Assembly (NCBI GenBank): GCA_963974595.1
Contig: CAXBDA010000001.1
Coordinates: forward strand, 39,657-103,656
Length of the DNA stretch: 64,000 nt
Reading direction: 5' to 3'
From: an uncultured Oleiphilus sp.
Lineage (GTDB): Bacteria > Pseudomonadota > Gammaproteobacteria > Pseudomonadales > Oleiphilaceae
Below the pieces are notes generated by a model. The model was not told the DNA's origin. It was given only the letters and a program-made list of their open reading frames with translations, and ran no database searches. This document shows positions 33,000 to 51,847 of this stretch, in pieces. The translations under genes were made by a program, and so were the position numbers. Each line of letters begins with the position of its first letter. Within the stretch, counting starts at the first letter, position 1.

Positions 33000-33010
33000 G
33001 GAGCGATAGA

Positions 33011-35380: not shown

Positions 35381-35412
35381 AAGGCTCCCTGTTTTTATTA
35401 TTGATAGAATAT

Positions 35413-36558
35413 TTAAACTAATGAACGCCCGATAATCAGCTTCATGATCTCGTTGGTGCCTGCGTAAATCTTTTGGACTCTGGCATCGGCATACGCTCGA
35501 GCAACCGGGTATTCCCACATATAGCCGTAACCACCATGTAGCTGCAAACATTCATCGATCACATCACACTGAATATCGGTACTCAGTAATTTCAACTTAG
35601 CGGCTGTGACGACATCAAGCTTTTTATCCAAATGAAGCTCTAAGCATTTATCGACAAATACCCGTGCCATAGTCAGCGTGGCTGACATTTCTGCCAATTT
35701 GAACTGGGTATTTTGGAAGGAGGCAATTTCACGACCAAAGGCTTTTCGCTCTTTGACATATTGAATAGTTTGCTCAAGTATCGATTCAGCACTAGCAATG
35801 GCATTTAGGCCAACAGACAAACGCTCTTGTGGCAGCTCTTGCATTAAGTAGATGAAGCCCATGCCTTCAGCGCCAAGTAAGTTTTCTTTGGGTACTTTTA
35901 CATCCTGAAAAAACAACTCAGAGGTATCTTGTGCTTTCATACCGATTTTATGAAGATTTTGACCTTTTTCAAAGCCTGCAGAGTTTGCTTCAACTAATAA
36001 AAGGCTGGTGCCCTTTGCCCCGGATTCTGGGTTGGTTTTAGCGACAATAATCACTAAATCTGCCATTTGGCCATTGGTGATAAAGGTTTTAGAACCATTT
36101 AAGACATAAAACTCACCACTTGCGTCGAGTACCGCATTAGTCTTAACACCTTGCAAGTCAGAACCAGTACCTGGTTCTGTCATCGCAATAGCGGTAACAA
36201 TATCACCGTTCACACAACCCGGCAGGTAGCGCTGTTTTTGCTCTTCCGTGCCATAGGCCATGATATAAGGAACTGCGATATCAGAATGTAAACCAAAGCC
36301 AATACCGCTTAGACCAAAGTTCGCTATTTCTTCATCGACTATCGCGTTAAAACGGAAGTCTCCTTCGACGCCACCGTAAACTTCGGGTACGGTTGGGCAC
36401 AAATAGCCATTTTCGCCAGCTTTTTTCCAAAGCTCGCGCGATACCTGCCCGTCTTTTTCCCACTGCTCATGATAAGGCACAGCTTCTTCTTGAAGGAATT
36501 TACGAAAAGCATCGCGAAACATTTCATGCTCAGATTCAAATACAGTACGTTTTATCAT
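35413..36558 (-). CDS. acyl-CoA dehydrogenase
   Basis: 381 aa with AIAMTEPGTGSDLQGVKT, KTFITNG and QLHGGYGYMWEYP. Confidence 0.92.
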   Translation of the reverse strand: MIKRTVFESEHEMFRDAFRKFLQEEAVPYHEQWEKDGQVSRELWKKAGENGYLCPTVPEVYGGVEGDFRFNAIVDEEIANFGLSGIGFGLHSDIAVPYIMAYGTEEQKQRYLPGCVNGDIVTAIAMTEPGTGSDLQGVKTNAVLDASGEFYVLNGSKTFITNGQMADLVIIVAKTNPESGAKGTSLLLVEANSAGFEKGQNLHKIGMKAQDTSELFFQDVKVPKENLLGAEGMGFIYLMQELPQERLSVGLNAIASAESILEQTIQYVKERKAFGREIASFQNTQFKLAEMSATLTMARVFVDKCLELHLDKKLDVVTAAKLKLLSTDIQCDVIDECLQLHGGYGYMWEYPVARAYADARVQKIYAGTNEIMKLIIGRSLV

Positions 36559-36649
36559 AATCTTATTCTCTTATATTTATTTATGGATATTAGCCTGTCT
36601 GCATAGCTGGCTCAGTATAAAAAATTCGCCAGCGCCTTTTACTTAAGCT

Positions 36650-38785
36650 TTAATCTTTGAAAGTTAAACCATCTTTTGCCATATTTTTAAGAAGTTGAGG
36701 CACTTCAAAACGCTTTCCGAATTTTTTAGCAAGATAGCTAGCTCTTTCTATAAACTGATTTAAACCAGTTTGGTTGATGAACTGTAAAATGCCACCGGTC
36801 CAAACAGGGTAACCAATACCCATAATCGAGCCAATATTGGCATCTCGCACACTTGTTAAAACGTTCTCTTCAACACAACGAACAGTTTCAATGGCTTGGA
36901 TATACAGTAAACGGTCTTTAATTTCTTGAAGGTCAATACGTTGATCGCCTTCCTTAAACAGTTCATTAAGACCTTTCCAAAGATGCTTTTTAGCCTGTGT
37001 TGGATAAGTATAAAAACCACCACCGGCTAACTTGCCTGCACGGCCAGCTTCTAACATTCGATCCACCACTGGGTCGGCTGGGTGCTCTTGGTAAGTTAAG
37101 CCTTCTGCCTGTACGTCTTTAATCGTTTGTTTTCTGATTTTGTCGATCAAGGTCATGCTGACTTCATCTGTGACCGCCAAAGGGCCAACAGGGAAACCGG
37201 ATAAAAATGCCGCATTTTCGATAGCTGAGGGCGAAATACCTTCCCCTACCATGGCAATACCTTCATTCGCAAAGGTACCAAACACACGCGAAGTGAAGAA
37301 GCCACGGCTATCATTCACTACAATCGGTGTTTTGCCGATTTGTAGCACATAATCATATGCTTTTGCCAAGGTATCAGGCGACGTTTTCTCACCGCAAATT
37401 ATTTCAACCAAGGGCATTTTATCGACAGGTGAAAAGAAGTGTAGACCGATAAAGTTTTCGGGTCTTGCAGATGCTTCGGCTAAACCGGTAATGGGTAAGG
37501 TTGAGGTATTAGAGGCAAAGATAGCCGAGCTTTCAAGCTGGGTTTCGGCATCTTTGGTCACTTTGGCTTTAAGCGCCCTATCTTCAAAGACGGCCTCTAT
37601 AATGAGATCACAACCTTTTAAGTCAGCATAGTCATCACTGGCTTTGATTAAAGATAAGGTTGCATCTCGTTTATCTTTTGTTAAGCGTTTTTTCTGAACT
37701 TTTTTATCTAAAAGCTTTTCAGCATAGGCTCTACCGCGCTCAGAATTCTCAATAGAAATATCTTTAAGAACTACCTCTAAGCCTTTATTGGCAGATGAAT
37801 AAGCAATGCCTGCTCCCATCATACCGGCACCTAAAATACCAACTTTTTTAACTTTAGAAGATTCAACGCCTTTAGGTCGCGCGGCACCCGCTTTAATTTC
37901 ATTCAACTGGAACCAGAATGTTCCGATCATATTTTTTGATACTTGACCGCAGACTAATTCAATAAAATACCGACTTTCGATACGCATCGCTGAGTCAATA
38001 TCGACTTGCAGACTTTCAACCATCACGCTGAGTATTGATTCGGGTGCGGGTAAAGTTCCTTTGGTTTTTGCACGCATCATAGCAGGTGCGATGGGCAACA
38101 TTTTTGCCAAACCGGGATGAGAGGGTAAACCGCCAGGGACTTTGTAGCCCTTTGCATCGTATGGTTGCTGTACTTTAGGGTTTGCTTTAATCCAAGCAAT
38201 AGCCGCATCGACTAACTCTTCTTCAGTATTTACTATGTCATTAATCAGACCCGCGGCTTTACCCTCTTCCGGCCTAAATTGTTTGCCTTCTGTTAAGTAA
38301 GGTAATGCAGTTTGAAGACCTAATAAACGAGTCATTCTCACCACACCACCGCCACCGGGCAGTAAACCAAGCGTGACTTCAGGCAAACCAAGGGTAACCC
38401 CTTTTGCTAAGCTGACTCGGTAGTGACAGGCTAAAGCCATTTCCCAACCGCCACCTAAAGCAGCACCATTGATACAAGCAACGACGGGCTTTCCGGCAGT
38501 TTCAAGTTCGCGCATGGCGACTTTTAATGTATCGAGCATATTGTATAACTGGTCTGCATTTTCTTTTGTCGTGGCATATAAATCATCCAAGCTTCCACCA
38601 GCGAAAAATGTCGACTTGGCTGAACGAATAATTACCCCAACATACTCTTCAGTTCTCAGCTGTTCTACCGCGATGGCTAGATCTTTAGTGAATGCGGCAT
38701 CCATTAAATTAGCAGACGCATTAGGTCGATCTAGAATGAGATGAACAATATTGTTGTCATCTTTTTGATACTTAATTGTGCTCAT
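36650..38785 (-). CDS. multifunctional enoyl-CoA hydratase / 3-hydroxyacyl-CoA dehydrogenase (FadB/FadJ-like)
   Basis: A crotonase-fold N-terminus (GAALGGGWEMALACH) plus the NAD-binding motif GILGAGMMGAGIA. The start is set at MSTIKYQ with an AGGAG SD. Confidence 0.9.
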   Translation of the reverse strand: MSTIKYQKDDNNIVHLILDRPNASANLMDAAFTKDLAIAVEQLRTEEYVGVIIRSAKSTFFAGGSLDDLYATTKENADQLYNMLDTLKVAMRELETAGKPVVACINGAALGGGWEMALACHYRVSLAKGVTLGLPEVTLGLLPGGGGVVRMTRLLGLQTALPYLTEGKQFRPEEGKAAGLINDIVNTEEELVDAAIAWIKANPKVQQPYDAKGYKVPGGLPSHPGLAKMLPIAPAMMRAKTKGTLPAPESILSVMVESLQVDIDSAMRIESRYFIELVCGQVSKNMIGTFWFQLNEIKAGAARPKGVESSKVKKVGILGAGMMGAGIAYSSANKGLEVVLKDISIENSERGRAYAEKLLDKKVQKKRLTKDKRDATLSLIKASDDYADLKGCDLIIEAVFEDRALKAKVTKDAETQLESSAIFASNTSTLPITGLAEASARPENFIGLHFFSPVDKMPLVEIICGEKTSPDTLAKAYDYVLQIGKTPIVVNDSRGFFTSRVFGTFANEGIAMVGEGISPSAIENAAFLSGFPVGPLAVTDEVSMTLIDKIRKQTIKDVQAEGLTYQEHPADPVVDRMLEAGRAGKLAGGGFYTYPTQAKKHLWKGLNELFKEGDQRIDLQEIKDRLLYIQAIETVRCVEENVLTSVRDANIGSIMGIGYPVWTGGILQFINQTGLNQFIERASYLAKKFGKRFEVPQLLKNMAKDGLTFKD

Positions 38786-38798
38786 GGATCTTCTCCTC

Positions 38799-40007
38799 TT
38801 AAATGCGTTCGATAATTGTTGCGATACCCATACCACCACCCACACATAAGGTAGCCAGACCTCTGGATAAGTTTCTTGCTTCTAATTCATCCAGAAGTGT
38901 GCCAAGAATCATCGCACCGGTTGCGCCTAGTGGGTGGCCCATCGCAATCGAACCACCATTTACGTTTACTTTATCTTCAGACACATTCATTTCAGCCATA
39001 AAACGCATAACCACTGAAGCAAAAGCTTCATTAACTTCAAATAAATCAATATCGCTGACATCCATACCGGCTACTTTGAGCGCTTTACGAGCGGCTGGCG
39101 CAGGCCCGGTTAGCATAATCGTTGGATCTGTACCGACAACAGCGGTCGCAACAATGCGTGCCCTCGGCTTCATCGCATATTTTTGCCCCGCCGCTTCGCT
39201 GCCAATTAATACCGCAGCGGCACCATCAACAATACCTGAGGAATTACCCGGTGTATGAACATGATGAATATGTTCAACATGGGGATAACGCTCTTTTGCA
39301 ACACCGTTAAAACCCATTTCACCCATCATCTGGAAAGATGCTTTCAAGTTTCCTAGTGTTTCTAAATTACTATCTGCACGAATTAATTCATCATGAGCGA
39401 GAATCGTTAAACCATTTCGATCAAGCACAGGAATAATAGCGTTTTTGAACGCAGATTTTTCCCAGGCAGCGGCAGCTTTTTGATGAGATCGCACAGCAAA
39501 GCCATCAACATCGGTACGGCTATAACCACCCAAGGTTGCAATTAAATCGGCGCCGATACCTTGCGGCATGAAGCCTGTTTTGAAGTTGGTTTCCGGGTCC
39601 ATCGCCCAAGCACCACCGTCACTGCCCATTGGAATGCGTGACATAGATTCGACACCACCCGCCACAACCAAGTGCTCCCATCCTGAACGTACTTTCATGG
39701 CTGCAGTATTAACCGCTTCTAAACCAGAGGCACAAAAACGGTTTAACACCATACCCGCAACATCATCATTCCACCCTGCGGCCAAGGCTGCTGTTTTGGC
39801 AATCACAGCACCTTGATCACCCACAGCAGTAACACAGCCCATAACAATATCATCAACATCTTGTGTGTCGAATTGGTTACGTTCTTGAAGAGTATTGAGC
39901 AATTGAGTGAGTAGTGTGACAGGTTTAACTTCGTGTAATGCACCGCTAGATTTTCCACGACCTCGTGGTGTGCGGATAGCATCAAAGATTAAGGCTTCGT
40001 TTATCAT
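38799..40007 (-). CDS. acetyl-CoA C-acyltransferase (thiolase)
   Basis: 402 aa with the active-site Cys context [11 protein letters not shown] and C-terminal [17 protein letters not shown] ... LCVGGGMG. Confidence 0.93.
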
Positions 40008-40189: not shown

Positions 40190-40220
40190 AAAAAAGCCGA
40201 TGATCACGAAGATCATCAGC
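40190..40220 (-). terminator. rho-independent terminator after the sensor kinase gene
   Basis: The minus strand reads GCTGATGATCTTCGTGATCATCGGCTTTTTT. Confidence 0.65.
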
Positions 40221-40265
40221 TTTAGATTGATAATTATTATGTGATTAGCTCACATTAAAAGAAAT

Positions 40266-43200
40266 TCAGAATGTAATTGTTTCTTGATAGAAAGATTTAG
40301 GGATGCGGATATTGGTTGTAAATGATCTGAAATCATCATCTTCATTGCCAGCACTCAGTATCACTTCAATACTGCCACCTTCTTTCTCAAGGAAGCCTTT
40401 TACAGCGTCCATACCAACACCTCTTCCCGAGACATCCGTTACTTCGTCTGCTGTTGAAAAACCTGAAGAAAATATCAAGTTAGCAATTTCAGCTGCGCTT
40501 GGCTTAGGATCAGATGCTTGATAAATACCTTTTTCTATCGCCATCTTATAAATCCGGCTAATCGCAATACCGCGACCATCATCTCTTACAGCTAAATTAG
40601 CGCCTTGTTCATCGGGTGTAACATCTAAAGTGATGATACCACTTTCAGGTTTACCTTTTTCAAGACGTTCTTCTATGCCTTCAATACCATGATCCATAGC
40701 GTTTCTAAATACATGCATGAAGATATTATTCAAGGTTGAACTGGCATGGCTCTTAATCAGAATACCTGCATTATCAATTTTAACCTCTGGTTTCCCTTTA
40801 CCTAATTGCTCAGCCAAAGAGTGCGCAGACTGAATTACATCAGAAATCACCTCTTCTAAAGGCTGCGCCTCCATCGTCATAAGCATACTATAGGCCTCAG
40901 AAACAACACCTTTAACATCTTGACTCATATCAGAGCCAGTCAATGATCTAATATTTTCTAACCACGTTGATACACGTGCAGGGTCAAGTGAAATACCACT
41001 TGCTGCTTCACCATCACGGCCTAATTTCTCCCTGAAGACCATAGCGTATTTCGCTAAGATTTCTTCAGCCCCAGAAAGCTCTGCTAACAATGACTCTTGA
41101 TTCCACTGAACATCTTCATTCTTACGTAAATCATCATAAGTACTCTCAACTTCATGAACAATATCGGTAACCTGGCTCAAACCGTAAGTACGCGCATTAC
41201 CTTTTACGGTATGCATAGATCTAAACAAGTTAGCAATAATATCTAAATCTTTCGTTGCATTGGCTTCGATTAGTTGGCGGCATTCTGCCAAGAACTCTTC
41301 AGCTGAACTTAAGAAGTCACTAAATTTAGCAGCATCAACAGCGAGTATTTCACCAATAATGGCCAATTCACGCTTCTGACCTTCAGCTTCGGCTTCAAGC
41401 GCTTTCAACTCGGTAACATCTCTTACTGTTACCATTAACTTATCAACCTCACCAGACTCACTAATAATTGGATCCCAATCCAGCTCTAGAATCTTTTCAC
41501 GATCATCTTCCATTTTGATGACCATCTCTGTCATCAAACAATGAGAGTTAAAGTCATACATCATTTCATCTTCACCAACAATCGCATCAACGCCCGTGAT
41601 ATTTTGATCGACAGAATCAGAACCCGCCGTTGTATTACTAAATAACAAGTCTGCAAAGTTTCGATCGGCAATACGATCTGTTTCGAATATTTTCTCTAGG
41701 TATGAAGCATACTCAGGGTGAATTAGGCCACCGGCAGTAATGGTAAATAAACCTTGGTGCATATTCGCCATCATATTGGCGATATCGTTATTCTTCTGTC
41801 TTAACTCAGCCGTTCTCTCTTCGACTTTCGCTTCAAGGTTTCTGTTTTGCTCTTCAATCACTTCACGCATACGTATGCTTTTGATCGTAGTCACTAGAGA
41901 ACGGGCAACCGAAGAAACAAACTCATAATCACTATCGGCAAAACTGACGTTCTTAACGTCTCCCGATAAGTTAATCACGCCCACTAGAATATCTTTATCG
42001 ACAAGAGGCACACATAATAGAGCCCTTTCCGAACCGGCATCATTTGATACAAAGTTTTTATCTTTAGAAGTATTTTGTACAAAGATAATTTTCTTCGTTT
42101 CAGCCGCTTTACCTAATATGCCCTGGCCCATTTCAAATTTGGCAGCAGAAGATCCAGCGTCAATTGCTTTCGGTGGAAAGTGTGCCTTGACTTCCAACTG
42201 TGATTTATCATTGGTTAAATAAACTGAGCCTTGAGCGACACCTATTTTGTCATGCATACTTTGTAAAACTTCTTCTAACGCAGTATTTTGGCTTTGCGCA
42301 CCAGCAAGTGAACGACCTATAGAGTTTAATTTTGCCAAATCGATCATTTTCTTACGTATTGCCAATCTCATAGAATTAAAGTTTTGAGCGGCTAACAAGA
42401 TAAGTACAATCAACATGACAATTGATAGTTTGATACCGAAATCAAGGCTATCAGACACTTTGCCTTGTAATTGGTTAAACTGCTCATCGGCTGCTTTCAA
42501 TAGCTTGTCTAAAGAATCAATTGCTTTGGTAACAGATGCATCTGCTTCATCTAATTTGGCCTTAGCAACCTCTATTTTCTCTAATTGCTTCAACTTATGA
42601 TCAGCAATTGAGGGTGACTTCATGACATGTTCACTGAGATCTGCATATGCTGTATTAGCGATTGGTACCAAACCTTGTTCATCAAATTCAGAAAATACCA
42701 TAGCGCCCTTATCAAACCAGGACTTAGAGTCGTTAATCGAGAATGTAAAATTACCCATACCACCACTGACTAGGCCCATATCCTGAGTAATTTTAATTTC
42801 ATCAATGGTTTTAAATAAGTTATTGATTAAAGTAATTGATTGATTAGCAAAGCCGATAACCAGTTCCATATCATCCTGGTGCTCTTCAGGCGCCATGTAA
42901 TACTGTATTTCATCTATCGATGCACCCACGCCATCAATAAGGTTAAACAGGATATCCACCTCGCCTAACATTCTGTTTCTAGCCGCCAACACTTCGGTTT
43001 TGGCTGTAAACATGTCGATCACGGCTTCACGATAGTCATCGTAATTTTCCTTTACTTCTTTTACGAGAACAGACTTCTCTGCATCTTTCTGAGCAAGTAA
43101 AGCAAGGCTTTGATAACGCTCTTCGAATCGTGAAACACCCGAATTAAAAGACGTTTTATAAGCATCAATCTGATCTTGGTTTCCGGCATTGAATGCAAGT

Positions 43201-43403
43201 GAACTCAGTTTCGCCAGTTTTAGCAGCTGGATCTGTACATCATTACTTTCTTTCACTACCGGCACAGCCGTTTCATTCACTAGAGAAGAAGAACCATTTA
43301 TATCATTAAGATTCCACAGGGATGAAAGCCCTGACGTTAATAGAAGCAGGATAATAATGGCAAAACCAAGACCAACTTTTTGATTAAACGATAATTGAAA
43401 CAT
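40266..43403 (-). CDS. membrane sensor kinase: MCP-like periplasmic helical domain, GAF, PAS, Hpt and CheA-type (P4) catalytic domain
   Basis: 1045 aa. TM1 is about aa 10-30. A ~290-aa helical periplasmic region follows, then TM2 at about aa 324-340. A GAF-like region spans ~375-510 and a PAS-like region ~540-665. The Hpt motif is FRSMHTVKGNARTYG (His731). The CheA-like ATP-binding core reads HVFRNAMDHGIE ... VRDDGRGI ... GFSTADEVTDVSGRGVGMDAVK. No P2 or P5/CheW-like domain and no receiver. Confidence 0.8.
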   Translation of the reverse strand: MFQLSFNQKVGLGFAIIILLLLTSGLSSLWNLNDINGSSSLVNETAVPVVKESNDVQIQLLKLAKLSSLAFNAGNQDQIDAYKTSFNSGVSRFEERYQSLALLAQKDAEKSVLVKEVKENYDDYREAVIDMFTAKTEVLAARNRMLGEVDILFNLIDGVGASIDEIQYYMAPEEHQDDMELVIGFANQSITLINNLFKTIDEIKITQDMGLVSGGMGNFTFSINDSKSWFDKGAMVFSEFDEQGLVPIANTAYADLSEHVMKSPSIADHKLKQLEKIEVAKAKLDEADASVTKAIDSLDKLLKAADEQFNQLQGKVSDSLDFGIKLSIVMLIVLILLAAQNFNSMRLAIRKKMIDLAKLNSIGRSLAGAQSQNTALEEVLQSMHDKIGVAQGSVYLTNDKSQLEVKAHFPPKAIDAGSSAAKFEMGQGILGKAAETKKIIFVQNTSKDKNFVSNDAGSERALLCVPLVDKDILVGVINLSGDVKNVSFADSDYEFVSSVARSLVTTIKSIRMREVIEEQNRNLEAKVEERTAELRQKNNDIANMMANMHQGLFTITAGGLIHPEYASYLEKIFETDRIADRNFADLLFSNTTAGSDSVDQNITGVDAIVGEDEMMYDFNSHCLMTEMVIKMEDDREKILELDWDPIISESGEVDKLMVTVRDVTELKALEAEAEGQKRELAIIGEILAVDAAKFSDFLSSAEEFLAECRQLIEANATKDLDIIANLFRSMHTVKGNARTYGLSQVTDIVHEVESTYDDLRKNEDVQWNQESLLAELSGAEEILAKYAMVFREKLGRDGEAASGISLDPARVSTWLENIRSLTGSDMSQDVKGVVSEAYSMLMTMEAQPLEEVISDVIQSAHSLAEQLGKGKPEVKIDNAGILIKSHASSTLNNIFMHVFRNAMDHGIEGIEERLEKGKPESGIITLDVTPDEQGANLAVRDDGRGIAISRIYKMAIEKGIYQASDPKPSAAEIANLIFSSGFSTADEVTDVSGRGVGMDAVKGFLEKEGGSIEVILSAGNEDDDFRSFTTNIRIPKSFYQETITF

Positions 43404-43570
43404 AGTTATATTCTTTTTTATTTAAATTCCAGTGGATTACGTATTACATTTTACTTTAGCGCAGTTTTTTTGAATGTCATGATTTCTTTTAATTTTTTCA
43501 GCAACTTTTCAATATACTGCTAATATAATTTTTAAGCCTTTCATTTAAAGTGGATTGAGAAATACCAATC

Positions 43571-44335
43571 ATGACCAATAAACTCATTCTTTTTTCTGTT
43601 GCCGCATTTGCTATAGGTGCCATTTTGGTTTTTCAATTAAGCCGAAAACACTTTTCGATAAAAATGCAGCTATTAACAGAACAAAACACATCTTTGGAGG
43701 CTGAGCTATCTAAGACTCAGCAAGAACTCAAGACTGAAAAATATAATTTAGACGAAGCTAACACCTCTCTAGAAGCAGCTAATCATGAGAATCATTCTCT
43801 CAACTCGGAAATAGATGCGCTAAGAGACCAATTAAGACACGAAAAAGAATCGATTCAAAATGAAATGCAAGCCGAACTCGACTCTCTTCGTAATAGCAAT
43901 CAGGCAGAAAAAGTCGAGCTAAACGACAAGTTATCGCAAGTAAAAGATAACCTTAATGACCTCGCAGCCTTGTTAGTGACCTTCGAGCGCTGGCATGAAA
44001 GCTTGACACAACTCATGCTTCATAACGCAGAAATGCACAAGCAAAATCAGGAGTTTTTCAATATCGTTAAACAGATTGTCATTCTTGCACTTAACGCTGC
44101 GATAGAAGCCGCTCGTGCCGGTGAACATGGTAGAGGCTTTGCTGTCGTTGCTGACGAGGTTCGAAATTTAGCCATGAGAAGCCAGGAACTTTCTGAGAGT
44201 TATAAGGAAAATCTTAATAAAAACGACTTCTTGACAACGGCAACATTCCAAGACATTCAGGCTGGCGGCAAAATGATTTTGACCGATGTATTCTCTACCT
44301 CTGAAATCGTTAAAAGCATGCTTGAGAAACTATAA
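43571..44335 (+). CDS. miniature MCP-like protein (TM anchor, coiled coil, MCP hairpin-tip segment)
   Basis: 254 aa with an N-terminal TM segment ([17 protein letters not shown]) and a coiled coil. The highly conserved MCP tip [30 protein letters not shown] (aa ~171-203) has only ~50 aa after it. Confidence 0.75.
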
Positions 44336-44384
44336 GGAAACATCACATGCAAAACTTTTCTTTCAAGTATTTAATAGGTTAGCC

Positions 44385-44951
44385 ATGTTAGTTAATGATG
44401 AATTCAAAAATGAAATCAAGAAAGCATTTCATAGCAGTTTTGAAGAAGCCTTTGTAGCTGGCTCAGATACATCACGCTGGCAATTTAAAGAGAAATCAAC
44501 ACTAGAAAATCTAGATACCAAAGAGTTCTATGTCTTAACGATGTCTTCACAGCTTTTCAGAATCTTTATATTTCTACATTTTTCAAAAAATGATGACACG
44601 GAAAAGTTTGTGAGCAGCGTATTGAATTTAACATCTGCCAAGCTGGATGAAGATAAGTTTTATGACTATTTAGGCGAAGTCGGTAACGCCTTTTTAGGGT
44701 CAATTAAGCGCGATTTAGGTAAACACATACCAAGCCTTGGCATGTCTACACCAAATAGACTAAGTATTGACTGCCTAAAGTATATGAAAAACCTTAATTC
44801 AAATTTTGAATCACACGCCATTTCAACGTTTGATGACAAAGTACTATTTTACTCTAGTGTCTATTTAGTTGCAGATGAAGAACTAAATATACATATAGAT
44901 CGTCATTCTCTCGAAAATGAAGTTGACTCTGGTGAACTTGAGCTATTCTAA
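44385..44951 (+). CDS. CheX-like protein (putative CheY-P phosphatase) with C-terminal DSGELELF tail
   Basis: It contains DYLGEVGNAFLGSIKRDLGKHIPSLGMSTP, which fits the CheC/CheX/FliY signature D-x3-E-x2-N-x21/22-P. About 188 aa from MLVNDEF. The ORF is open from 44286 (221 aa), which would overlap the upstream gene. Confidence 0.6.
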   Translation: MLVNDEFKNEIKKAFHSSFEEAFVAGSDTSRWQFKEKSTLENLDTKEFYVLTMSSQLFRIFIFLHFSKNDDTEKFVSSVLNLTSAKLDEDKFYDYLGEVGNAFLGSIKRDLGKHIPSLGMSTPNRLSIDCLKYMKNLNSNFESHAISTFDDKVLFYSSVYLVADEELNIHIDRHSLENEVDSGELELF

Positions 44952-44994
44952 ACTGATAAATACAAGTTTATAAGAATTTAAAACAGGAGCAAAA

Positions 44995-46002
44995 ATGTCT
45001 GATACAACACATATAGTTAGCAAAATTCTGGTGCATGAATGCAATGATGATGCACTTCTTGCATTAAAAGATGTCTGCACCGAACATAAACTTGTCGGCT
45101 TAAAAGTTAGTACGGGTAAGCATAATATTGGCTTAAAAGACGCGGCAAATGAAATTAATGATGTTCTTAACTCCAATGTAGACTTGGGTGCAATTTTTCT
45201 ATCGGAAGCACCGGACCCTATTGGTTTTACAGGTAGTGAGTTATGTTTAAAGATTCATCATACGCGTCCTGAACTACCTATTTTTCTAAGAAGAACAGAA
45301 AAACAAGATGGCAGTGATCTACCTGAAGATGTTCAGAAAGCAATTACTGGCTACTACACGCTTGATAACATAGGAATACTTGATGAATTAATCAGAACGT
45401 ATGTCTGTAGCATGTATTACCCTGTTGAACTCGCGCAAGGAATACAAGAGATTTCGTTTGATGCCTTTTCAAATATCATTACCGACACTGCTATCAGCTG
45501 TGATCAGCCCTACTTAGTGAAAGACCAGATTATTTATGGTGAGCTATTTAGCCTTATCCCCCTGGAAAGTGAATGGTGCAGAGGCTATATGATGCTTCAA
45601 ACCACAGAAAGTGAGATTCTTGATTTAATTCGATCGGGTAAAACACATATCACATCCACCAGGCCTGACTCTCGCGATACCAATGCCGTATTGAATGAAA
45701 TTACAAATATGATTTGGGGTGGCATTAAATCTCGCTACTTCCAAAGTGGTGAATCACCTAGCGAAGCGCATAGAACTCAAGTCCCGATCATTGTAAACCA
45801 CTTACAAAAACACATATCGTTTGGTTCAACAGAACCTCAGCTGTGTTTTAAATATAATCTGAGCACACCAGATAATACGTTTTCTTCTATCACGATCTAT
45901 CAGCGGTTAGTGTTTAACTTAAGCTGGTCTCCTGAAAAATTCGCAGAAAGTGACAAGGCAGTAGATGATTTTGTAGATAGCGGTGAACTTGAATTATTCT
46001 AA
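44995..46002 (+). CDS. degenerate receiver-like domain fused to CheX-like domain, C-terminal DSGELELF tail
   Basis: 335 aa. The N-terminal ~125 aa have REC-like strand/helix periodicity (KILVHECNDD ... LGAIFLSE ... LPIFLRRT). The phospho-acceptor Asp and conserved Lys are not evident. The C-terminal half has a CheX-like NEITNMIWGGIKSR ... VPIIV segment. It ends in VDDFVDSGELELF. Confidence 0.5.
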   Translation: MSDTTHIVSKILVHECNDDALLALKDVCTEHKLVGLKVSTGKHNIGLKDAANEINDVLNSNVDLGAIFLSEAPDPIGFTGSELCLKIHHTRPELPIFLRRTEKQDGSDLPEDVQKAITGYYTLDNIGILDELIRTYVCSMYYPVELAQGIQEISFDAFSNIITDTAISCDQPYLVKDQIIYGELFSLIPLESEWCRGYMMLQTTESEILDLIRSGKTHITSTRPDSRDTNAVLNEITNMIWGGIKSRYFQSGESPSEAHRTQVPIIVNHLQKHISFGSTEPQLCFKYNLSTPDNTFSSITIYQRLVFNLSWSPEKFAESDKAVDDFVDSGELELF

Positions 46003-46077
46003 AGTGTATCTACGCTTATGCTATAAACTTTATTTTTATAATTAGTCCGTCTTTAGTAAGACAACGAGGTAAGCAAA

Positions 46078-46446
46078 ATGGCACAAATCTTAGTAGTTGA
46101 TGATTCAGCAACTGTAAGAAACGAAGTAAGTTCTTTCATCAAAAGTCACGGCATGACTGTCGAAGTCGCTGTAGATGGTAAAGATGGCTTGGATAAATTA
46201 AAAAAAGACCCAAGCGTTAAGCTAATCATATCAGACGTAAACATGCCAAATATGGATGGTTTAACCATGGTCGAGAAAGTTCGAAACGAACTTGGAAACG
46301 CTACCGTTAATATTATTATGCTAACAACTGAAAGTGACCCGCGCATGAAAGAGCGCGGAAAAGCAGCAGGCGTGAAAGGCTGGATAGTTAAGCCTTTCAA
46401 AGGCGACAATGTGGTTGGCAGTATTAAAAAGTTAATTGGTGCTTAA
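46078..46446 (+). CDS. single-domain CheY-like response regulator
   Basis: 122 aa with all canonical REC residues: DD (VVDDS), phospho-Asp (ISDVNMPNMDG), T (MLTTE) and K (VKPF). Confidence 0.92.
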   Translation: MAQILVVDDSATVRNEVSSFIKSHGMTVEVAVDGKDGLDKLKKDPSVKLIISDVNMPNMDGLTMVEKVRNELGNATVNIIMLTTESDPRMKERGKAAGVKGWIVKPFKGDNVVGSIKKLIGA

Positions 46447-48117: not shown

Positions 48118-48732
48118 CTATTGTTTAATTGCCAGATTCAAAGCCTGCTCAGAAAGCTCATCCAAGCTCATCCCACCTTTTGGCTTGTACCAGGTTTTTG
48201 ACCAACTTAAGGCTCCCGTCAAAAACCGCCTTAATACAAAAACATCGCCCGTCACTAAACCATTTTCTTTTGCTTCGGTAATCGTATCTATCCAAAGAGA
48301 TTCATATTCATCTCTAAGTTTTAATATCATCGCCTGATTATCTGTATTTAAGCTACGCCACTCGTAAACCAGAACCGACATCGCCTCACCTGTCTCACCA
48401 TTAATTGACTCAAGTTCACAGCGAATCAAAGCCTTTAATGCATCAACGCACGTTTCAGCTTTGGCCATTTCTTTTTTCATACGCTGGGTATTGAAAATTA
48501 TGGTGTCGACCATGACAGACTTCAAAATATCTTCTTTGGTTTTAAAGTGATGAAAAAGGCTGCCCGACTGAATTCCAGCGGCATTTGCCAAGTCGCGAAC
48601 GGTTGTTCGTTCATAACCTTTTTGGTTGAACAACTTAGCGGCAATAATCAGTAAACGCCCTTTTGCACTATTTGGATCTGTTGCTTCAATTTCTGAATTT
48701 TCTAATTTTTCAACATTACTTGCAGATGCCAA
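48118..48732 (-). CDS. atuR: TetR-family repressor, AtuR-like (divergent from atuA)
   Basis: 204 aa with the TetR HTH AAKLFNQKGYERTTVRDLANAAGIQSGSLFHHFKTKEDIL. Its position and orientation match atuR in the Pseudomonas atu cluster. Confidence 0.75.
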   Translation of the reverse strand: MASASNVEKLENSEIEATDPNSAKGRLLIIAAKLFNQKGYERTTVRDLANAAGIQSGSLFHHFKTKEDILKSVMVDTIIFNTQRMKKEMAKAETCVDALKALIRCELESINGETGEAMSVLVYEWRSLNTDNQAMILKLRDEYESLWIDTITEAKENGLVTGDVFVLRRFLTGALSWSKTWYKPKGGMSLDELSEQALNLAIKQ

Positions 48733-48775
48733 ACTGATCTCCTAACACTCATTCACAACGTAAGAAAACAATGTA

Positions 48776-48848
48776 GGCCCCTGAGTTTGTAGAAGGGCCA
48801 AATTGAACTTTAGGGTAACATCGCATACGTTTCGACGAGCTCAACGAA
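48776..48848 (-). repeat. intergenic hairpin repeat, copy A (inverted orientation, lacks the 3' CTCAGGGACC duplication)
   Basis: The reverse complement reads CGTTGAGCTCGTCGAAACGTATGCGATG...TTTGGCCCTTCTACAAACTCAGGGGCC, which aligns with copies B and C. Confidence 0.75.
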
Positions 48849-48898
48849 CGAGATTTTTTTTCTATGTTCATAATAATAGTAAACTGACCACTTTACAA

Positions 48899-48916
48899 AC
48901 CAAGCGCTTGCTTGGT
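48899..48916. promoter_or_regulatory. inverted repeat ACCAAGC-N4-GCTTGGT, candidate AtuR operator
   Basis: A perfect 7-bp inverted repeat in the atuR-atuA divergent intergenic region, about 40 bp upstream of the atuA start. Confidence 0.4.
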
Positions 48917-48958
48917 AGACTAATTTCAGTTGTTTCACTCATGAATCAGGAAATTGGA

Positions 48959-50788
48959 ATGAACACAGCACCAGAAAACAACAAAACACATAAAAACTCA
49001 ATTCGAATTGGTTGTGCTTCAGCATTTTGGGGTGATACCGAAACGGCTGCAAAGCAGCTGGTAGATAAAGGTAAAATCGATTATTTGGTATTCGACTATT
49101 TGGCAGAAATAACCATGTCGATCATGGCGGGTCAGAAAATGAAAGACCCTAATGCCGGTTATGCCAGCGACTTTGTTAAAACGGTTATGGCTCCCCTGCT
49201 TTCTGACATAAAAAATAAAAATATAAAAGTTATTAGTAACGCTGGCGGCGTGAATCCTCAAGCATGTGTTAAGGCCTTGCAAAGCATCATCGATCAAGCA
49301 GGCATAGATTTAACAGTAGCAATGGTTGACGGTGACAATATTCTACCCAAGAAAAAGTTTTATGAAGAATCCGGCGTGACAGAAATGTTTACGGGCGAGC
49401 CTATTCCAAAAATGCTTGTCAGTATGAATGCTTACCTAGGCGCTAATGGCGTCGTTTCTGCACTAGAACGTGGTGCAGACATCATTGTTACAGGCCGGGT
49501 TGTGGATAGTGCAGTCGTATTAGGTGCACTTGTGCATGAATTTTCATGGGCTTGGGATGATTTTGATAAGTTAGCTCAAGGCGCCTTAGCAGGTCACATC
49601 ATTGAATGCGGCGCACACTGTACCGGTGGGAATTTCACCGACTGGGAATCAGTTGCCGTTGGATATGATGATATGGGCTTCCCGATTGCTGAAGTCAGTG
49701 CCGATTCTAGTTTCATCGTGACCAAGCCAGACAGTACCGGTGGCGCGGTTACCACGGCAACCGTCTCAGAGCAGTTGGTGTATGAAATTGGTAACCCGCA
49801 TGCCTATATGCTGCCGGATGTTATTTGTGATTTTGCTGAAGCGAAATTAACTCAAGTTTCAGAAAACCATGTGCGCGTGGTTGGTGCTAAGGGTTTACCA
49901 CCAACCGACACGTACAAAGTATCTTCGACATGGCCAGATGGTTTCAAATGCACTGTCACTTTTCTAATGGCAGGCATCAATGCGCCAAAAAAAGCACAAG
50001 CAGTCTCTGACGCTATCATCAAAAAAACCTCACGCATGTTAGACGAAAAAGGCTTAAAGCCTTTCACTCAAGTAGATATTGAATTACTCGGGACTGAAGC
50101 AACCTACGGAGCGCACGCTAAGCGCAGTGATACCCGCGAAGTCGTCGTTAAAATTGCCGTTGCCAGTGCCGATAAAAAATCACTGGTTTTATTCTCAAGA
50201 GAAATTGCGCAAGCTGCCACCGGTATGGCTCCAGGCATTACCGGTATCGTCGGTGGTCGACCGACTGTTTGGCCCAAGATACGCCTGTTCTCCTGTTTAG
50301 TGCCAAAAGATAGTATTGAAGTCAGTACACTTATTAATGAAGAAAAGCAGACTGTGCCACTCACCCTATTCAAGGGAGATATTCCACAAACACCACACGC
50401 CATTTCAATTAAACACACTGAAGATATGGATACACAATTAACCGTACCCTTGGTGTCTTTAGCTTGGGCCAGAAGTGGTGATAAAGGTGACCATTCCAAC
50501 ATCGGTGTCATTGCTCGTAAAGCCGACTATCTACCCTATATTCATTCAGCTTTAACAAATGAAAATGTAGCAGAGTTCATGAAGCACACTTTGTGCCCTG
50601 AAAAAGGCAAGGTAAATTCCTGGCTGCTACCGGGTATTCATGCCATTAATTTTTTACTTGAACATTCATTAGGCGGTGGGGGTGTGGCAAGTTTACGCAT
50701 CGACCCGCAAGGGAAAGCATTTGCTCAGCAACTACTTGAGTACCCTATTTCCGTTAGTCAGAAAATCTTTGACGATTTAAACAAGTAA
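48959..50788 (+). CDS. atuA: acyclic terpene utilisation protein AtuA (DUF1446 family)
   Basis: IRIGCASAFWGDT...DYLVFDYLAEITMSIM is the typical DUF1446 N-terminus. The start is taken at MNTAPE (AGGA SD), with an alternative ATG at 48941. The ORF extension back to 48803 reads through repeat copy A and is rejected. Confidence 0.8.
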   Translation: MNTAPENNKTHKNSIRIGCASAFWGDTETAAKQLVDKGKIDYLVFDYLAEITMSIMAGQKMKDPNAGYASDFVKTVMAPLLSDIKNKNIKVISNAGGVNPQACVKALQSIIDQAGIDLTVAMVDGDNILPKKKFYEESGVTEMFTGEPIPKMLVSMNAYLGANGVVSALERGADIIVTGRVVDSAVVLGALVHEFSWAWDDFDKLAQGALAGHIIECGAHCTGGNFTDWESVAVGYDDMGFPIAEVSADSSFIVTKPDSTGGAVTTATVSEQLVYEIGNPHAYMLPDVICDFAEAKLTQVSENHVRVVGAKGLPPTDTYKVSSTWPDGFKCTVTFLMAGINAPKKAQAVSDAIIKKTSRMLDEKGLKPFTQVDIELLGTEATYGAHAKRSDTREVVVKIAVASADKKSLVLFSREIAQAATGMAPGITGIVGGRPTVWPKIRLFSCLVPKDSIEVSTLINEEKQTVPLTLFKGDIPQTPHAISIKHTEDMDTQLTVPLVSLAWARSGDKGDHSNIGVIARKADYLPYIHSALTNENVAEFMKHTLCPEKGKVNSWLLPGIHAINFLLEHSLGGGGVASLRIDPQGKAFAQQLLEYPISVSQKIFDDLNK

Positions 50789-50812
50789 CGTCAGTCAGCA
50801 AAGGAATCCGTA

Positions 50813-51694
50813 ATGCCTGATAACACGAAAAGCACCTATCAATCTGTTTTCAAAGACAGATTATTTGAAAATAAAACCATTATCGTAACAGGTGGAGGCA
50901 GTGGCATTGGCCGCTGCACCGCGCATGAACTAGCAGCGCTCGGTGCGACCGTTATATTAATTGGCCGAAAACTCGAAAAACTTGAAATTGTTGCTCATGA
51001 AATAAAAGAAGATGGCGGCGAAGTTGATTTCTATGCCTGTGATATTCGAGAAGAAAGCATCGTTCAGCAGACCATCAAAGAACTTGTCAGCAAACATCCA
51101 GTTATCCACGGTCTGGTAAACAATGCCGGTGGTCAATTTCCTTCACCTTTAACAGGTATTAACCAAAAAGGCTGGGAAACGGTTGTAAGAACTAACCTGA
51201 CTGGCGGCTTCTTGATGGCCAAAGAAGTTTATCTTAAAAGCATGTCTAAGCATGGCGGCTCTATTGTCAATATTGTTGCCGACATGTGGGGTGGCATGCC
51301 TGGCATGGGGCATTCAGGTGCAGCACGAGCTGGCATGGTCAACTTCACCCAAACAGCGGCAGTTGAATGGGGTGCTTCCGGTGTTCGTGTGAATGCTGTT
51401 GCACCGGGTTGGGTGGCTTCAAGCGGTATGGACTCGTATCCAGAAAGCATGAAACCATGGATTAAAGGCTTGCAAGAAGCGGTTCCTCTAAAACGTTTAG
51501 CGACAGAAGCGGAAGTGAGTTCTGCTATCTGTTTTTTATTGAGTGACGGCGCGAATTTTATAAGTGGTGATTGTTTACGCATAGACGGTGCAGCCTCACA
51601 AGGCGGTCGTGTTATGCCGCTAGCTAAAGCCAAAAACTCTGAAAGTTATAACGGCTTCCACCGAGCAGTGACGCCTAAGATATTTCAGGAGTGA
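50813..51694 (+). CDS. atuB: short-chain dehydrogenase/reductase, AtuB-like
   Basis: 293 aa with TGGGSGIG and NNAG motifs of SDRs. In the atuB position. Confidence 0.75.
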   Translation: MPDNTKSTYQSVFKDRLFENKTIIVTGGGSGIGRCTAHELAALGATVILIGRKLEKLEIVAHEIKEDGGEVDFYACDIREESIVQQTIKELVSKHPVIHGLVNNAGGQFPSPLTGINQKGWETVVRTNLTGGFLMAKEVYLKSMSKHGGSIVNIVADMWGGMPGMGHSGAARAGMVNFTQTAAVEWGASGVRVNAVAPGWVASSGMDSYPESMKPWIKGLQEAVPLKRLATEAEVSSAICFLLSDGANFISGDCLRIDGAASQGGRVMPLAKAKNSESYNGFHRAVTPKIFQE

Positions 51695-51722
51695 ACAAAA
51701 TAGAACTTATGTAAATAATTTG

Positions 51723-51813: not shown

Positions 51814-51847
51814 TAATTTCGGCATAACAAAGACAAAAAGGTTGAAC

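Follow-up and report, generated by a model that had tools for sequence, protein, structure and literature searches.

A widely conserved chemosensory-like gene unit in Oleiphilus with a sensor-fused CheA-type kinase and no CheW or P5 domain

Results

Organisation of the locus

The window analysed is a 64,000-nucleotide stretch of DNA from an uncultured Oleiphilus sp. (assembly GCA_963974595.1, contig CAXBDA010000001.1, positions 39,657 to 103,656). The source thus belongs to Oleiphilaceae and lies outside the Alteromonadales and Vibrionales, for which the original prediction had suggested checking the gene order. It carries five ORFs around a divergent intergenic region, namely a kinase gene on the minus strand and genes for a mini-MCP, two middle proteins referred to as X1 and X2, and CheY, all on the plus strand (Table 1). 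Coordinates, strands, quoted motifs and the length of the divergent promoter region agreed with the original prediction made from this DNA, with the start of X1 as the sole change. X1 had been given as a 221 aa protein, but its homologs measure 185–192 aa and the start was placed accordingly; in Oleiphilus it therefore does not overlap the MCP-like gene. The locus lies between beta-oxidation genes and a set comprising an MFS transporter, TetR and Atu genes, and no che genes were found in these flanks. Alignment of 18 orthologous intergenic regions revealed one conserved sigma70-like element facing the kinase, which was also matched in a separate scan, and one facing the cassette, whereas no sigma28 or sigma54 pattern was detected.

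Table 1. Features of the locus. Nucleotide positions refer to the window, residues to the respective protein.
Feature	Position	Strand	Basis or remark
Terminator-like hairpin, 13-bp stem and T run	40193..40223	-	just 3' of the kinase stop codon
P5-less CheA-type sensor-fused histidine kinase, 1045 aa	40266..43403	-	ORF; Pfam, NCBIfam and PDB matches
CheA-P4-type ATP-binding/catalytic domain	40344..40859	-	N, G1, F and G2 boxes invariant
Shortened P3-like dimerisation hairpin, residues ~787-848	40860..41045	-	
Hpt/CheA-P1-like domain, invariant H731 in MHTVKGNARTYG	41049..41330	-	Pfam Hpt
PAS-like segment, residues ~540-680	41364..41786	-	highly conserved; in conserved transmitter core
GAF domain, residues 370-505	41889..42296	-	Pfam GAF_2 E 5e-12; 9/9 family members
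Periplasmic helical sensor domain, residues ~34-315	42459..43304	-	between TM1 and TM2
TM1, residues ~8-33; TM2, residues ~316-349			hydropathy
Divergent intergenic region, 167 bp	43404..43570	.	sequence; two phylogenetically conserved sigma70-like elements
Sigma70-like element ATGACA-N16-TAAAGT, facing kinase	43480-43453	-	alignment, 18 orthologous regions
Sigma70-like element GCAAC...TGCTGCTAATAT, facing cassette	43501-43526	+	alignment, 18 orthologous regions
Mini-MCP, 254 aa	43571..44335	+	MCPsignal E 1e-19; topology; conservation profile
TM anchor (residues 1-25), then variable coiled-coil stalk, then conserved hairpin			parts of the mini-MCP
Conserved hairpin with canonical MCP tip, residues ~135-235	43973-44275	+	
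X1, stand-alone CheX-fold protein, 188 aa	44385..44951	+	homolog lengths, alignments, model
X1 motif D94-x3-E98-x2-N101	44664-44687	+	X1 also has LGMSTP
X1 C-terminal tail DSGELELF	44925-44948	+	
X2, pseudo-receiver and CheX domain	44995..46002	+	Pfam CheX E 1.6e-8, above cut-off
X2 pseudo-receiver, residues ~8-140; CheX domain, ~145-310			
X2 C-terminal tail DSGELELF	45976-45999	+	
CheY-like single-domain response regulator, 122 aa	46078..46446	+	Response_reg E 5e-25

The sensor-fused kinase and its class

By sequence and comparison, the kinase is a transmembrane sensor that carries its own input domains on an Hpt-P3-P4 transmitter with all catalytic motifs intact. Full-length relatives in the family were found at 52–93% identity. 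The periplasmic domain matched 4HB_MCP_1 in all nine family members, TarH in five and CHASE3 in three of them, the Oleiphilus protein itself scoring 26.8 bits for 4HB_MCP_1 against a cut-off of 27. The PAS domain originally proposed stood only in part: a conserved PAS-like segment exists, showing dense invariant columns in the family alignment and weak PAS_4 and PnpS matches, but Pfam supported PAS in one of nine family members. This segment is kept in distant kinases of the HAMP and propeller types, in which the matches begin at residues 511–534.

The claim that the catalytic half is of the CheA type was supported by Pfam, NCBIfam and PDB searches. The Hpt domain (Pfam E 1e-10) matched CheA P1 structures at the profile level, and H731 and its neighbours are invariant in the family. 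The family profile over residues 787–1019 aligned to P3-P4 of Thermotoga maritima CheA (4XIV residues 8–240) with a gap in the hairpin, HATPase_c was matched at E 4e-9, and NCBIfam CheA models covered residues 829–1015, equivalent to CheA 336–522. The top PDB matches were CheA P4 and P1. As the Hpt, P3 and P4 regions matched CheA and a Pfam search of the kinase yielded no HisKA match, a classical HisKA core was ruled out. The kinase is devoid of P5, since only ~25 residues follow P4. The shortness of P3 had been missed previously.

The P5-less Hpt-P3-P4 core defines a large coherent kinase class that includes the Oleiphilus kinase. In 149 of the 150 best representatives at most 39 residues follow the core, leaving no P5, and a CheW domain was detected in none of nine scanned representatives. 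The inputs attached to this core are 4HB-GAF, HAMP, HAMP-GAF, 7TMR-DISM or Reg_prop/Y_Y_Y (beta-propeller) modules; because relatives fuse it to such differing sensors, the suggestion that sensing is built into the kinase gained support. Kinase paralogues without partners were found in assemblies that also contain the full cassette. Membership in a large class had not formed part of the original prediction.

The mini-MCP, X1, X2 and CheY

In line with the earlier description of an MCP-like protein retaining little beyond the hairpin tip, the mini-MCP comprises an N-terminal anchor followed by a variable coiled coil and then a hairpin conserved over ~48 residues per arm. The tip is canonical and almost invariant among 28 orthologs, whose total length ranges from 234 to 331 aa. 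Since the tip is canonical, CheW or CheA from other parts of the genome might just as well be the partners of this protein.

By sequence, X1 matched CheX weakly (Pfam E 0.011), and a sequence profile detected none of the solved CheX structures. Its model (pLDDT 87.7) retrieved only CheX, CheC, FliY or FliM folds with Foldseek, at target-normalised TM up to 0.75. In alignments spanning 21–100% identity, E98 and N101 are invariant and D94 is present in at least 90% of the sequences. X2, modelled with moderate confidence (pLDDT 73.5), matched receivers with its N-terminal and CheX with its C-terminal domain; E235-x2-N238 is invariant in the alignment. The Borrelia CheX-CheY3 complex (3HZH) was among the fold matches of both X1 and the X2 C-terminal domain. 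On the basis of fold and E-x2-N motif both middle proteins are CheX/CheC-related, as had been proposed, and an unrelated identity was ruled out. In the X2 pseudo-receiver, which showed a receiver-like OKR_DC_1_N Pfam match and was also compared with the module CheY by hhalign, Glu replaces the acceptor Asp. An acidic linker and G-x-L-E-[LFM]-F close every complete X1 and X2, and the models predict these tails to be disordered. Side by side, X2 ends in ...AVDDFVDSGELELF and CheZ in ...QVDDLLDSLGF (1KMI). The shared tail and the pseudo-receiver had both escaped the original prediction.

CheY was correctly recognised as a single-domain protein, with DD8-9, D53, T82 and K104 in place and W at the Y106 position. 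It is 69–98% identical across cassette loci, where acid pocket, T and K are invariant. Its top NCBIfam model is CheY, at 71.9 bits versus a cut-off of 189.

Conservation of the unit

The unit recurs in more than 100 independent genome and metagenome loci from several gammaproteobacterial families. In 44 genome loci the five genes are the sole conserved ones and occur in two arrangements. MCP-X1-X2-CheY is the fixed gene order in 80 metagenome loci collected by means of X1, with the kinase lying divergently upstream, co-directionally upstream or downstream. Gaps within the cassette are short (medians 18, 42 and 56 nt); the MCP-X1 junction is the tightest and most constant, and the two genes overlap in some loci. 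The kinase is genetically locked to the four-gene cassette of mini-MCP, X1, X2 and CheY. Not every part is obligatory, since no kinase was found within 8 kb of some cassettes (L097), X2 is missing in HdN1 and L043/L044, where MCP and X1 persist, and one variant (L026) has no MCP-like gene.

None of cheW, cheR, cheB and cheD was a conserved neighbour in the 44 genome loci or in 15 diverse metagenome loci. Among 144 flanking ORFs of the latter, the 25 most recurrent Pfam families, each seen at most four times, included no Che family. The absence of CheW, CheR, CheB and CheD noted for the Oleiphilus locus was confirmed there, and the possibility that cheW, cheR and cheB lie next to the unit in other genomes was looked for and not borne out. 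Full-text literature searches returned no description of the five-gene unit, in agreement with the view that its composition matches no described pathway class. The unit is widely conserved but uncharacterised.

Discussion

On balance we favour the view that the unit is a self-contained, CheW-independent, chemosensory-like phosphorelay. By comparison with known families, P4 would trans-autophosphorylate H731 of the Hpt domain, modulated by a signal that reaches the periplasmic and GAF domains, and the phosphoryl group would pass to D53 of the adjacent CheY. X1 and X2, as putative phosphatases, would hydrolyse CheY-P through their E-x2-N sites, which would make the signal fast-resetting as in chemotaxis. 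More tentatively, the acidic tails may act as docking peptides, most likely binding the alpha4-beta5-alpha5 face of CheY-P if the analogy with the CheZ C-terminal peptide holds, and the X2 pseudo-receiver might regulate or compete with this docking. The membrane-anchored MCP tip could be a scaffold or regulator keeping kinase and phosphatases together, possibly replacing the array-organising role of CheW and P5 via family-specific surfaces (FERWHE, QDIQAGG) or via X1. Additional kinase paralogues with other sensors might feed the same cassette, and CheY-P, whose output is encoded outside the unit, might act on the flagellar motor or on a c-di-GMP enzyme.

Hosts of the cassette should possess chemotaxis systems of the ordinary kind, so that absence of CheW from the whole genome is unlikely. 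It is conceivable, if unlikely, that the cassette forms an accessory branch of ordinary chemotaxis, in which conserved tip and trimer contacts let the mini-MCP join the CheA/CheW array, the flagellar switch is the target of CheY and the kinase provides an array-independent input. The nearly invariant canonical tip would fit such a branch, as would the chemotaxis-type NMPNMDG loop of CheY, its aromatic W at Y106 and its best NCBIfam model, and the CheX phosphatases known elsewhere, among them those matched in the PDB, belong to motility pathways. However, the mini-MCP stalk between membrane and tip differs by ~100 residues among orthologs, which is hard to reconcile with a constant distance from membrane to baseplate. 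The conserved hairpin, too, is short, and the N-helix before the tip reads K-Q-I-V instead of the usual E-Q-T-N. The cassette is accompanied by its own kinase type, apart from the cassettes with no kinase within 8 kb, and never by cheW/cheA, the intergenic region lacks a sigma28-type promoter, and CheY scores far under the equivalog cut-off.

It appears still less likely that X1, perhaps together with X2, serves chiefly as a structural coupler, a CheC/FliM-fold adaptor standing in for CheW that binds MCP tip and kinase, with the tail docking onto either. The CheC/CheX/FliM superfamily includes the non-enzymatic scaffold FliM, a Foldseek match of X1, and the tightness of the MCP-X1 junction, the persistence of this pair where X2 is missing and the failure to link X1 to solved CheX structures by sequence all point in the same direction. 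Against this, the phosphatase signature is invariant in X1 and X2, making catalysis hard to avoid as an explanation; the coupler and phosphatase roles are compatible and not mutually exclusive. A decayed che operon that lost cheW, cheR, cheB and P5, or a chance juxtaposition of signalling genes, is highly improbable and already effectively refuted, as the fact that the locus looks superficially like an incomplete che operon is outweighed by the same composition in more than 100 loci of several families in three gene arrangements, by intact ORFs with invariant catalytic residues, by the coherent P5-less class and by the failure to find the 'missing' genes around the genome and metagenome loci.

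In a 2023 survey (PMC10542144), all 13,673 CheAs (100%) were reported to have a CheW domain and CheA was described as without a sensor domain, and a separate receptor and kinase linked by CheW have been considered to set chemotaxis systems apart (bioRxiv 10.1101/2022.05.07.491037). The phosphorelay proposed here would do without the CheW/P5 coupling domain, which current definitions count as core of chemosensory systems. Its closest counterparts are the canonical chemosensory pathways (MiST/Wuichet-Zhulin F1-F17, Tfp and ACF), especially the CheX-containing ones of Borrelia burgdorferi and T. maritima, with which it shares an MCP tip protein, CheA-type P1/P3/P4, a single-domain CheY, CheX-type phosphatases and an operon-like grouping. 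It differs from them in having no CheW protein, P5, CheR, CheB or CheD at the locus, in a receptor reduced to anchor, stalk and short hairpin without ligand-binding or methylation region, and in a kinase that has sensor domains of its own, both transmembrane and cytoplasmic. Features that the kinase shares with CheA are the phospho-His within H-[TS]-[VI]-K-G, the P3-like hairpin and, in P4, the CheA-specific N, G1, F and G2 boxes, whereas P5 and P2 are absent, P3 is shortened and ~690 sensor residues (periplasmic 4HB-type, GAF, PAS-like) precede P1.

X1 and X2 resemble CheX (3HZH; T. maritima 1XKO/1SQU) and the structural-genomics CheC-like proteins SO_3915 (3H2D) and 3IIC, at target-normalised TM 0.65–0.76, and share with them the catalytic E-x2-N on a long helix; unlike CheX, they carry a conserved disordered G-x-L-E-phi-F tail, and X2 is also fused to a pseudo-receiver. 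The tails show a short likeness to the CheY-binding C-terminal peptide of CheZ (E. coli residues ~200–214, 1KMI) in being acidic, amphipathic and Phe-ending, but the last motif residues differ and the catalytic domain has a CheX fold in place of a four-helix bundle. The unit is also reminiscent of a sensor histidine kinase acting on a stand-alone receiver, as in the Bacillus Spo0F-Rap/Spo0E logic, where one protein senses and phosphorylates and a single-domain receiver is reset by dedicated phosphatases; it is set apart by a CheA-type Hpt and P4 instead of HisKA/DHp, by CheX-type phosphatases and by an integral MCP-tip protein.

Organization of the Locus

All five open reading frames of the original prediction are present at the positions proposed, with the kinase gene separated from the other four by a divergent intergenic region of 167 bp. 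Within this region, two elements are conserved among the Oleiphilaceae, one facing the kinase and one facing the MCP-X1-X2-CheY genes, which will be referred to as the cassette; both were noted as sigma70-like in sequence. A consensus sigma70 scan of the sequence scored below chance, and no sigma28 or sigma54 pattern was detected in 18 orthologous intergenic regions, and promoter type was discarded as an indicator of the regulon. A hairpin resembling a terminator, with a stem of 13 bp, lies 3′ of the kinase stop codon.

Genes of the signalling unit and conserved elements of the intergenic region
Feature	Position	Strand	Basis
Kinase	40266-43403	-	ORF
Kinase-facing element, ATGACA-N16-TAAAGT	43453-43480	-	conserved in orthologous intergenic regions of Oleiphilaceae
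Cassette-facing element, GCAAC...TGCTGCTAATAT, resembling an extended -10	43501-43526	+	conserved in orthologous regions of Oleiphilaceae
MCP-like gene	43571-44335	+	ORF
X1	from 44385	+	ORF
X2	44995-46002	+	ORF
CheY	46078-46446	+	ORF

The unit is flanked on one side by genes for a CoA-transferase, an acyl-CoA dehydrogenase, a FadB-like protein, and a thiolase and on the other by genes for an MFS transporter, TetR, AtuA, a short-chain dehydrogenase (SDR), and a carboxyltransferase; no CheW, CheV, CheR, or CheB was found in these window flanks. The latter four genes form an Atu-type cluster for acyclic-terpene utilisation, extending from 48118 to 53464 and onwards, near which a beta-oxidation block is located (34202-40007). 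Both agree with a hydrocarbon-degrading Oleiphilus, and exact sequence matches together with related contigs likewise assign the window to Oleiphilus/Oleiphilaceae. Elsewhere in the window, at 31104-33871, a gene for a multicopper oxidase precedes an ORF of 291 aa; the GC content of this stretch is 0.52 compared to 0.41-0.45 around it, and the two genes may represent an acquired copper-resistance pair. The sole RNA gene detected in the window is a tRNA-Glu (anticodon TTC, 6879-6954), far from the unit.

Conservation of the Unit and Its Variants

Searching with the kinase yielded 44 reference-genome loci from Oleiphilaceae, Hahellaceae, Allohahella, Ketobacteraceae, Marinobacteraceae, Pseudomonas/Aquipseudomonas, strain HdN1, and Cellvibrionaceae, in which the genes are arranged either divergently, as in the window, or collinearly (MCP-X1-X2-CheY-kinase). 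ORF clustering showed that the five genes alone are conserved in these 44 loci; the next neighbour occurs in 9 of them, and CheW, CheV, CheR, and CheB are not among the conserved neighbours. A search with X1 retrieved 80 metagenome loci with X1 identities down to 28%. Wherever the contig was long enough, the order MCP-X1-X2-CheY was fixed, and the kinase was located upstream in divergent or codirectional orientation or downstream; occasionally, none was present within 8 kb. One such metagenome locus (L097:7348-9931) carries a complete cassette, and no kinase of the P5-less class described below was detected within 8 kb on either side. The cassette genes are closely spaced, the median gaps being 18, 42, and 56 nt. 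The check on gene order called for by the original prediction thus returned a fixed cassette in more than 100 loci, with the kinase in three arrangements, and the parts list and its tight genetic linkage can be read directly from these loci.

In 15 diverse metagenome loci, 144 non-module ORFs were assigned to 126 Pfam families, none of which occurred more than four times, and CheW, CheR, CheB, and CheD are absent from the 25 most recurrent flanking families. The absence of these four proteins from the locus, as originally proposed, therefore holds for the window flanks and for recurrent neighbours elsewhere. The CheR/CheB methylation-adaptation system was not found in any neighbourhood examined, and a stand-alone CheW or CheV was found neither in the window flanks nor among the conserved neighbours of the 44 genome loci or the 25 most recurrent families of the 15 metagenome loci. 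No conserved effector gene beside the cassette was found in these genome and metagenome loci.

Several loci deviate from the five-gene arrangement. Four partner-less kinases (L032-L035) share assemblies with complete cassettes (L027, L025, L037, and L019). In the Ketobacteraceae genome OZ244969, two tandem kinase paralogues follow the cassette (L027:9987-16576) and a third, partner-less one is encoded elsewhere, and three further assemblies each contain one full cassette and one orphan kinase paralogue. These partner-less kinases look like extra sensors. X2 is missing in HdN1. Two loci (L043 and L044) encode a 762-aa HAMP-Hpt-HATPase kinase and an extra CheX-like protein along with a divergent MCP plus X1, and another (L042) encodes a Reg_prop/Y_Y_Y-Hpt-HATPase kinase. 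In Marinobacteraceae bacterium S3BR75-40.1 (L026:7371-13153), the kinase is divergent from genes for a 225-aa CheX-like protein with a DFVKELCN motif and an acidic tail (...DDDEGFDFL), a diguanylate cyclase of the PAS-GGDEF type, and a CheY-like protein of 45% identity; an MCP-like gene was not found in this variant. GGDEF proteins adjoin only this variant kinase and one orphan kinase, which lies beside a 7TMR-DISM-GGDEF gene (L035), and these two genes are the sole hint of a link to c-di-GMP.

A CheA-Type Kinase with Its Own Sensors

Hydropathy analysis of the kinase revealed transmembrane segments at residues ~8-33 and 316-349 with a periplasmic region of ~285 aa between them. The N-terminus matches a 4HB_MCP_1-type domain slightly below the Pfam threshold, and relatives also match TarH and CHASE3. 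Pfam further identified GAF, Hpt, and HATPase_c domains. With two transmembrane segments, a periplasmic domain, and GAF, the kinase unites what is otherwise divided between receptor and kinase proteins. Sensing had been attributed to the periplasmic domain, GAF, and PAS; the first two were found, and a bona fide PAS domain was rejected since just one of nine family members matched, at E 0.008, for which reason we retain the term PAS-like. Residues 510-690 are the most conserved part of the kinase. Distant relatives with other sensors match from residues 511-534, and as the segment is kept in these relatives, it is part of the transmitter core.

The catalytic half is of the CheA type. NCBIfam CheA models cover residues 829-1015 (CheA 336-522), and the closest solved structures are CheA P4 and P1, with E values of 1e-42 to 1e-44 against CheA P4 structures, which identifies the HATPase_c domain as CheA-type. 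A profile of nine family members aligned residues 692-785 to CheA P1 and residues 787-1019 to the T. maritima P3-P4 construct 4XIV (residues 8-240). The latter alignment shows that the kinase has a shortened P3 dimerisation hairpin; Pfam H-kinase_dim gave no match. The Pfam Hpt match and the P1 profile match are accompanied by a phospho-accepting histidine, H731 within MHTVKGNARTYG, which is invariant in the family, as are the N, G1, F, and G2 boxes (52-74% overall identity). A classical HisKA kinase was ruled out, as no HisKA-family match was obtained in any of the nine members; with Hpt, P3, and P4 all matched, the CheA-type core of the original prediction is upheld. The protein ends ~25 residues beyond P4 and therefore contains neither P5 nor P2, and no CheW Pfam domain was detected in it.

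An exhaustive search with kinase residues 690-1045 retrieved 1,961 representatives at E ≤ 1e-30, a set that probably includes some canonical CheAs. The best 150 of these (211-415 bits) match the entire Hpt-P3-P4 unit, and 149 of the 150 extend at most 39 residues past the core and therefore lack P5. Among these 150 best, the class of P5-less sensor kinases amounts, at 50% identity, to no fewer than 149 clusters, one of which includes an Acidobacteriota protein. Lengths range from 220 to 4,858 aa. Nine representatives scanned with Pfam bear GAF, HAMP-GAF, 4HB-HAMP-GAF, 7TMR-DISM, or Reg_prop/Y_Y_Y or lack a sensor that can be recognised, and a CheW domain was found in none of the nine. Database names are uninformative ("GAF domain-containing protein", "hypothetical protein", "CheX", "ATP-binding protein", "CheA", "HPt domain-containing protein"). 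Unusual carriers of the P5-less core, either giant or composed of several units, are P0351 (4,858 aa, 31 matched stretches, and a single C-terminal kinase), P0371 (2,330 aa, nine Hpt H-box motifs, of which eight lie beyond the kinase), and P0369, in which two Hpt-P4 units are combined with 7TMR-DISM.

The MCP-Like Protein and CheY

The MCP-like protein has one N-terminal anchor, and no periplasmic or sensor domain was detected in it by Pfam or hydropathy analysis. Its MCPsignal match (E 1e-19) is confined to the tip (profile positions 44-135). Among 28 orthologs, conservation is limited to residues ~135-235, corresponding to ~48 residues per arm, within which the canonical hairpin tip is nearly invariant and flanked by family-specific blocks including FERWHE. 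The C-terminal arm stops ~65 residues past the tip, so the protein does not form a complete MCP hairpin with methylation helices; to our knowledge, the shortest described class of MCP signalling hairpins has 24 heptads. In the same orthologs the coiled-coil stalk is variable in sequence and the total length ranges from 234 to 331 aa. This range of ~100 residues and the unconserved stalk sequence weaken the idea of a stalk adjusted to an array of constant height.

The MCP signalling domain is accompanied by a CheY-like regulator (Response_reg, E 5e-25), which is the most conserved component, with 69-98% identity among cassette loci. Its acid pocket (D8, D9, and D53) as well as T82 and K104 are complete and conserved, and a Trp occupies the Y106 position. 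The cut-off of the NCBIfam CheY equivalog was not reached (71.9 bits versus 189).

X1 and X2 Are CheX-Fold Proteins

Homologs of X1 measure 185-192 aa, which places the true start at M34 (position 44385) and rules out the originally proposed 221-aa reading that overlaps the MCP gene. The Pfam CheX match of X1 is weak (E 0.011), and no solved CheX structure was found by sequence with the X1 profile. The predicted model is confident (pLDDT 87.7, pTM 0.83), and all of its top 37 Foldseek matches, among them the Borrelia CheX-CheY3 complex, are CheX, CheC, FliY, or FliM. The active-site signature of CheC/CheX/FliY proteins is D/S-x3-E-x2-N-x22-P. In X1, D94-x3-E98-x2-N101 and LGMSTP are conserved to 21% identity, with E and N invariant and followed by a P at +22. 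The fold and the invariant motif together exclude that X1 is unrelated to CheX, as its weak Pfam match and missing sequence match to structures might have suggested.

X2 passes the Pfam CheX cut-off. In its model (pLDDT 73.5), the N-terminal part folds as a receiver (target-normalised TM 0.74-0.80) and the C-terminal part as CheX (TM 0.76), and the top Foldseek matches of both the X1 and X2 models are CheX or CheC (E 1e-7 to 1e-8). E235-x2-N238 is invariant and the conserved P264 lies 26 residues beyond N238; the -4 position is neither D nor S. Both proteins thus combine the fold of the CheC/CheX/FliY superfamily with its active-site residues, and their proposed assignment to the CheX/CheC type is borne out by the modelled folds and the E-x2-N invariant in each. 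In the receiver-like half of X2, H-E replaces the DD pair, Arg replaces the conserved Thr, and E71 (≥90% conserved) follows beta3 where the acceptor Asp is expected, equivalences that depend on a weak profile alignment (hhalign E 0.0015). Judged by these residues, the domain is a predicted pseudo-receiver without the phospho-accepting Asp.

A feature overlooked by the original prediction is a C-terminal tail common to X1 and X2. In all lineages examined, every complete X1 and X2 terminates in G-x-L-E-[LFM]-F preceded by an acidic linker (...AVDDFVDSGELELF in X2), and disorder is predicted for these tails. In the HAMP-type loci, the third CheX-like protein ends with ...EEGTLAFF. CheZ, a CheY-P phosphatase unrelated to X1 and X2, also has an acidic C-terminal peptide (...QVDDLLDSLGF in E. 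coli, checked in 1KMI), which tethers CheZ to CheY. By analogy, a CheZ-like tethering by the X1 and X2 tails is a lead rather than a result, and the tail represents a candidate new docking motif that is directly testable.

Proposed Mechanism

Conserved residues and modelled folds indicate that the unit is catalytically competent at that level. From what is known of these families, a signal would control autophosphorylation of H731, the phosphoryl group would be transferred to D53 of CheY, and X1 and X2 would hydrolyse CheY-P. More speculatively, the X1 and X2 tails might dock on CheY-P, the X2 pseudo-receiver might modulate this docking, and the MCP tip might act as a membrane scaffold or regulator replacing CheW/P5.

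Alternatively, the cassette might plug into a canonical array and motor, in line with the canonical tip of the MCP and with the CheY-like loop. Against this, the stalk is variable, the cassette associates exclusively with its own type of kinase, and a sigma28 promoter is lacking. X1 and X2 might also be chiefly structural couplers, a role consistent with the tight MCP-X1 junction and with their FliM relatives, but their catalytic residues are invariant. A decayed che operon or a chance adjacency is effectively refuted by conservation in more than 100 loci and three arrangements.

A broader and rather doubtful proposal may also be put forward. The cassette might represent a distinct, CheW-independent wiring of an MCP tip to a CheA-type kinase, in which coupling is either direct, through the PAS-like/P3 region, or mediated by tail-bearing CheX-fold adaptors. 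This would add a third type of architecture, lying between classical two-component systems and chemosensory arrays; the cassette could be either a streamlined derivative or a still extant relative of the pre-CheW chemotaxis ancestor, and P5-less sensor-fused CheA-type kinases would be a large overlooked class left out of current CheA surveys. If the MCP tip does work with the module kinase, a CheW-independent coupling mechanism would be demonstrated and a compact system for studying the receptor tip alone would be available. Cultured hosts are Oleiphilus messinensis, Allohahella sp. A8, Aquipseudomonas guryensis, Pseudomonas benzenivorans, and strain HdN1.

Comparison with Known Systems

With minor corrections, the original interpretation is supported: the unit is a real, conserved signalling cassette of known domain types in a configuration outside current classifications. 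Apparently it is uncharacterised. No description was found in the literature searched, which is only suggestive as coverage excluded most subscription-journal papers; nor is the cassette described in a P. syringae two-component survey, two CheW-domain preprints, a CheA-architecture survey, or a 2026 Vibrionales preprint. According to a 2023 survey, 100% of 13,673 CheAs contain a CheW domain; its authors considered the pairing of HATPase_c and CheW to be what "uniquely distinguishes CheA homologs" and described CheA as being without a sensor domain (PMC10542144). The kinase lies outside this definition, which probably accounts for the absence of its class from such surveys.

In current classification, CheW/P5 and receptor-kinase separation distinguish chemosensory from two-component systems. 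The kinase shares P1, P3, and P4 with CheA but has no CheW-like P5 domain and carries its own sensors, and the unit has the MCP tip and CheY of a chemosensory pathway as defined, without CheW, P5, CheR, or CheB. Its sequences thus predict a chemotaxis-type, phosphorelay-like system, yet one that belongs neither to the chemosensory pathways nor, by its kinase, to the CheAs. Across many bacteria, this unit keeps an MCP tip, a CheA-type core, predicted CheX phosphatases, and CheY together without CheW/P5 and with the sensor on the kinase.
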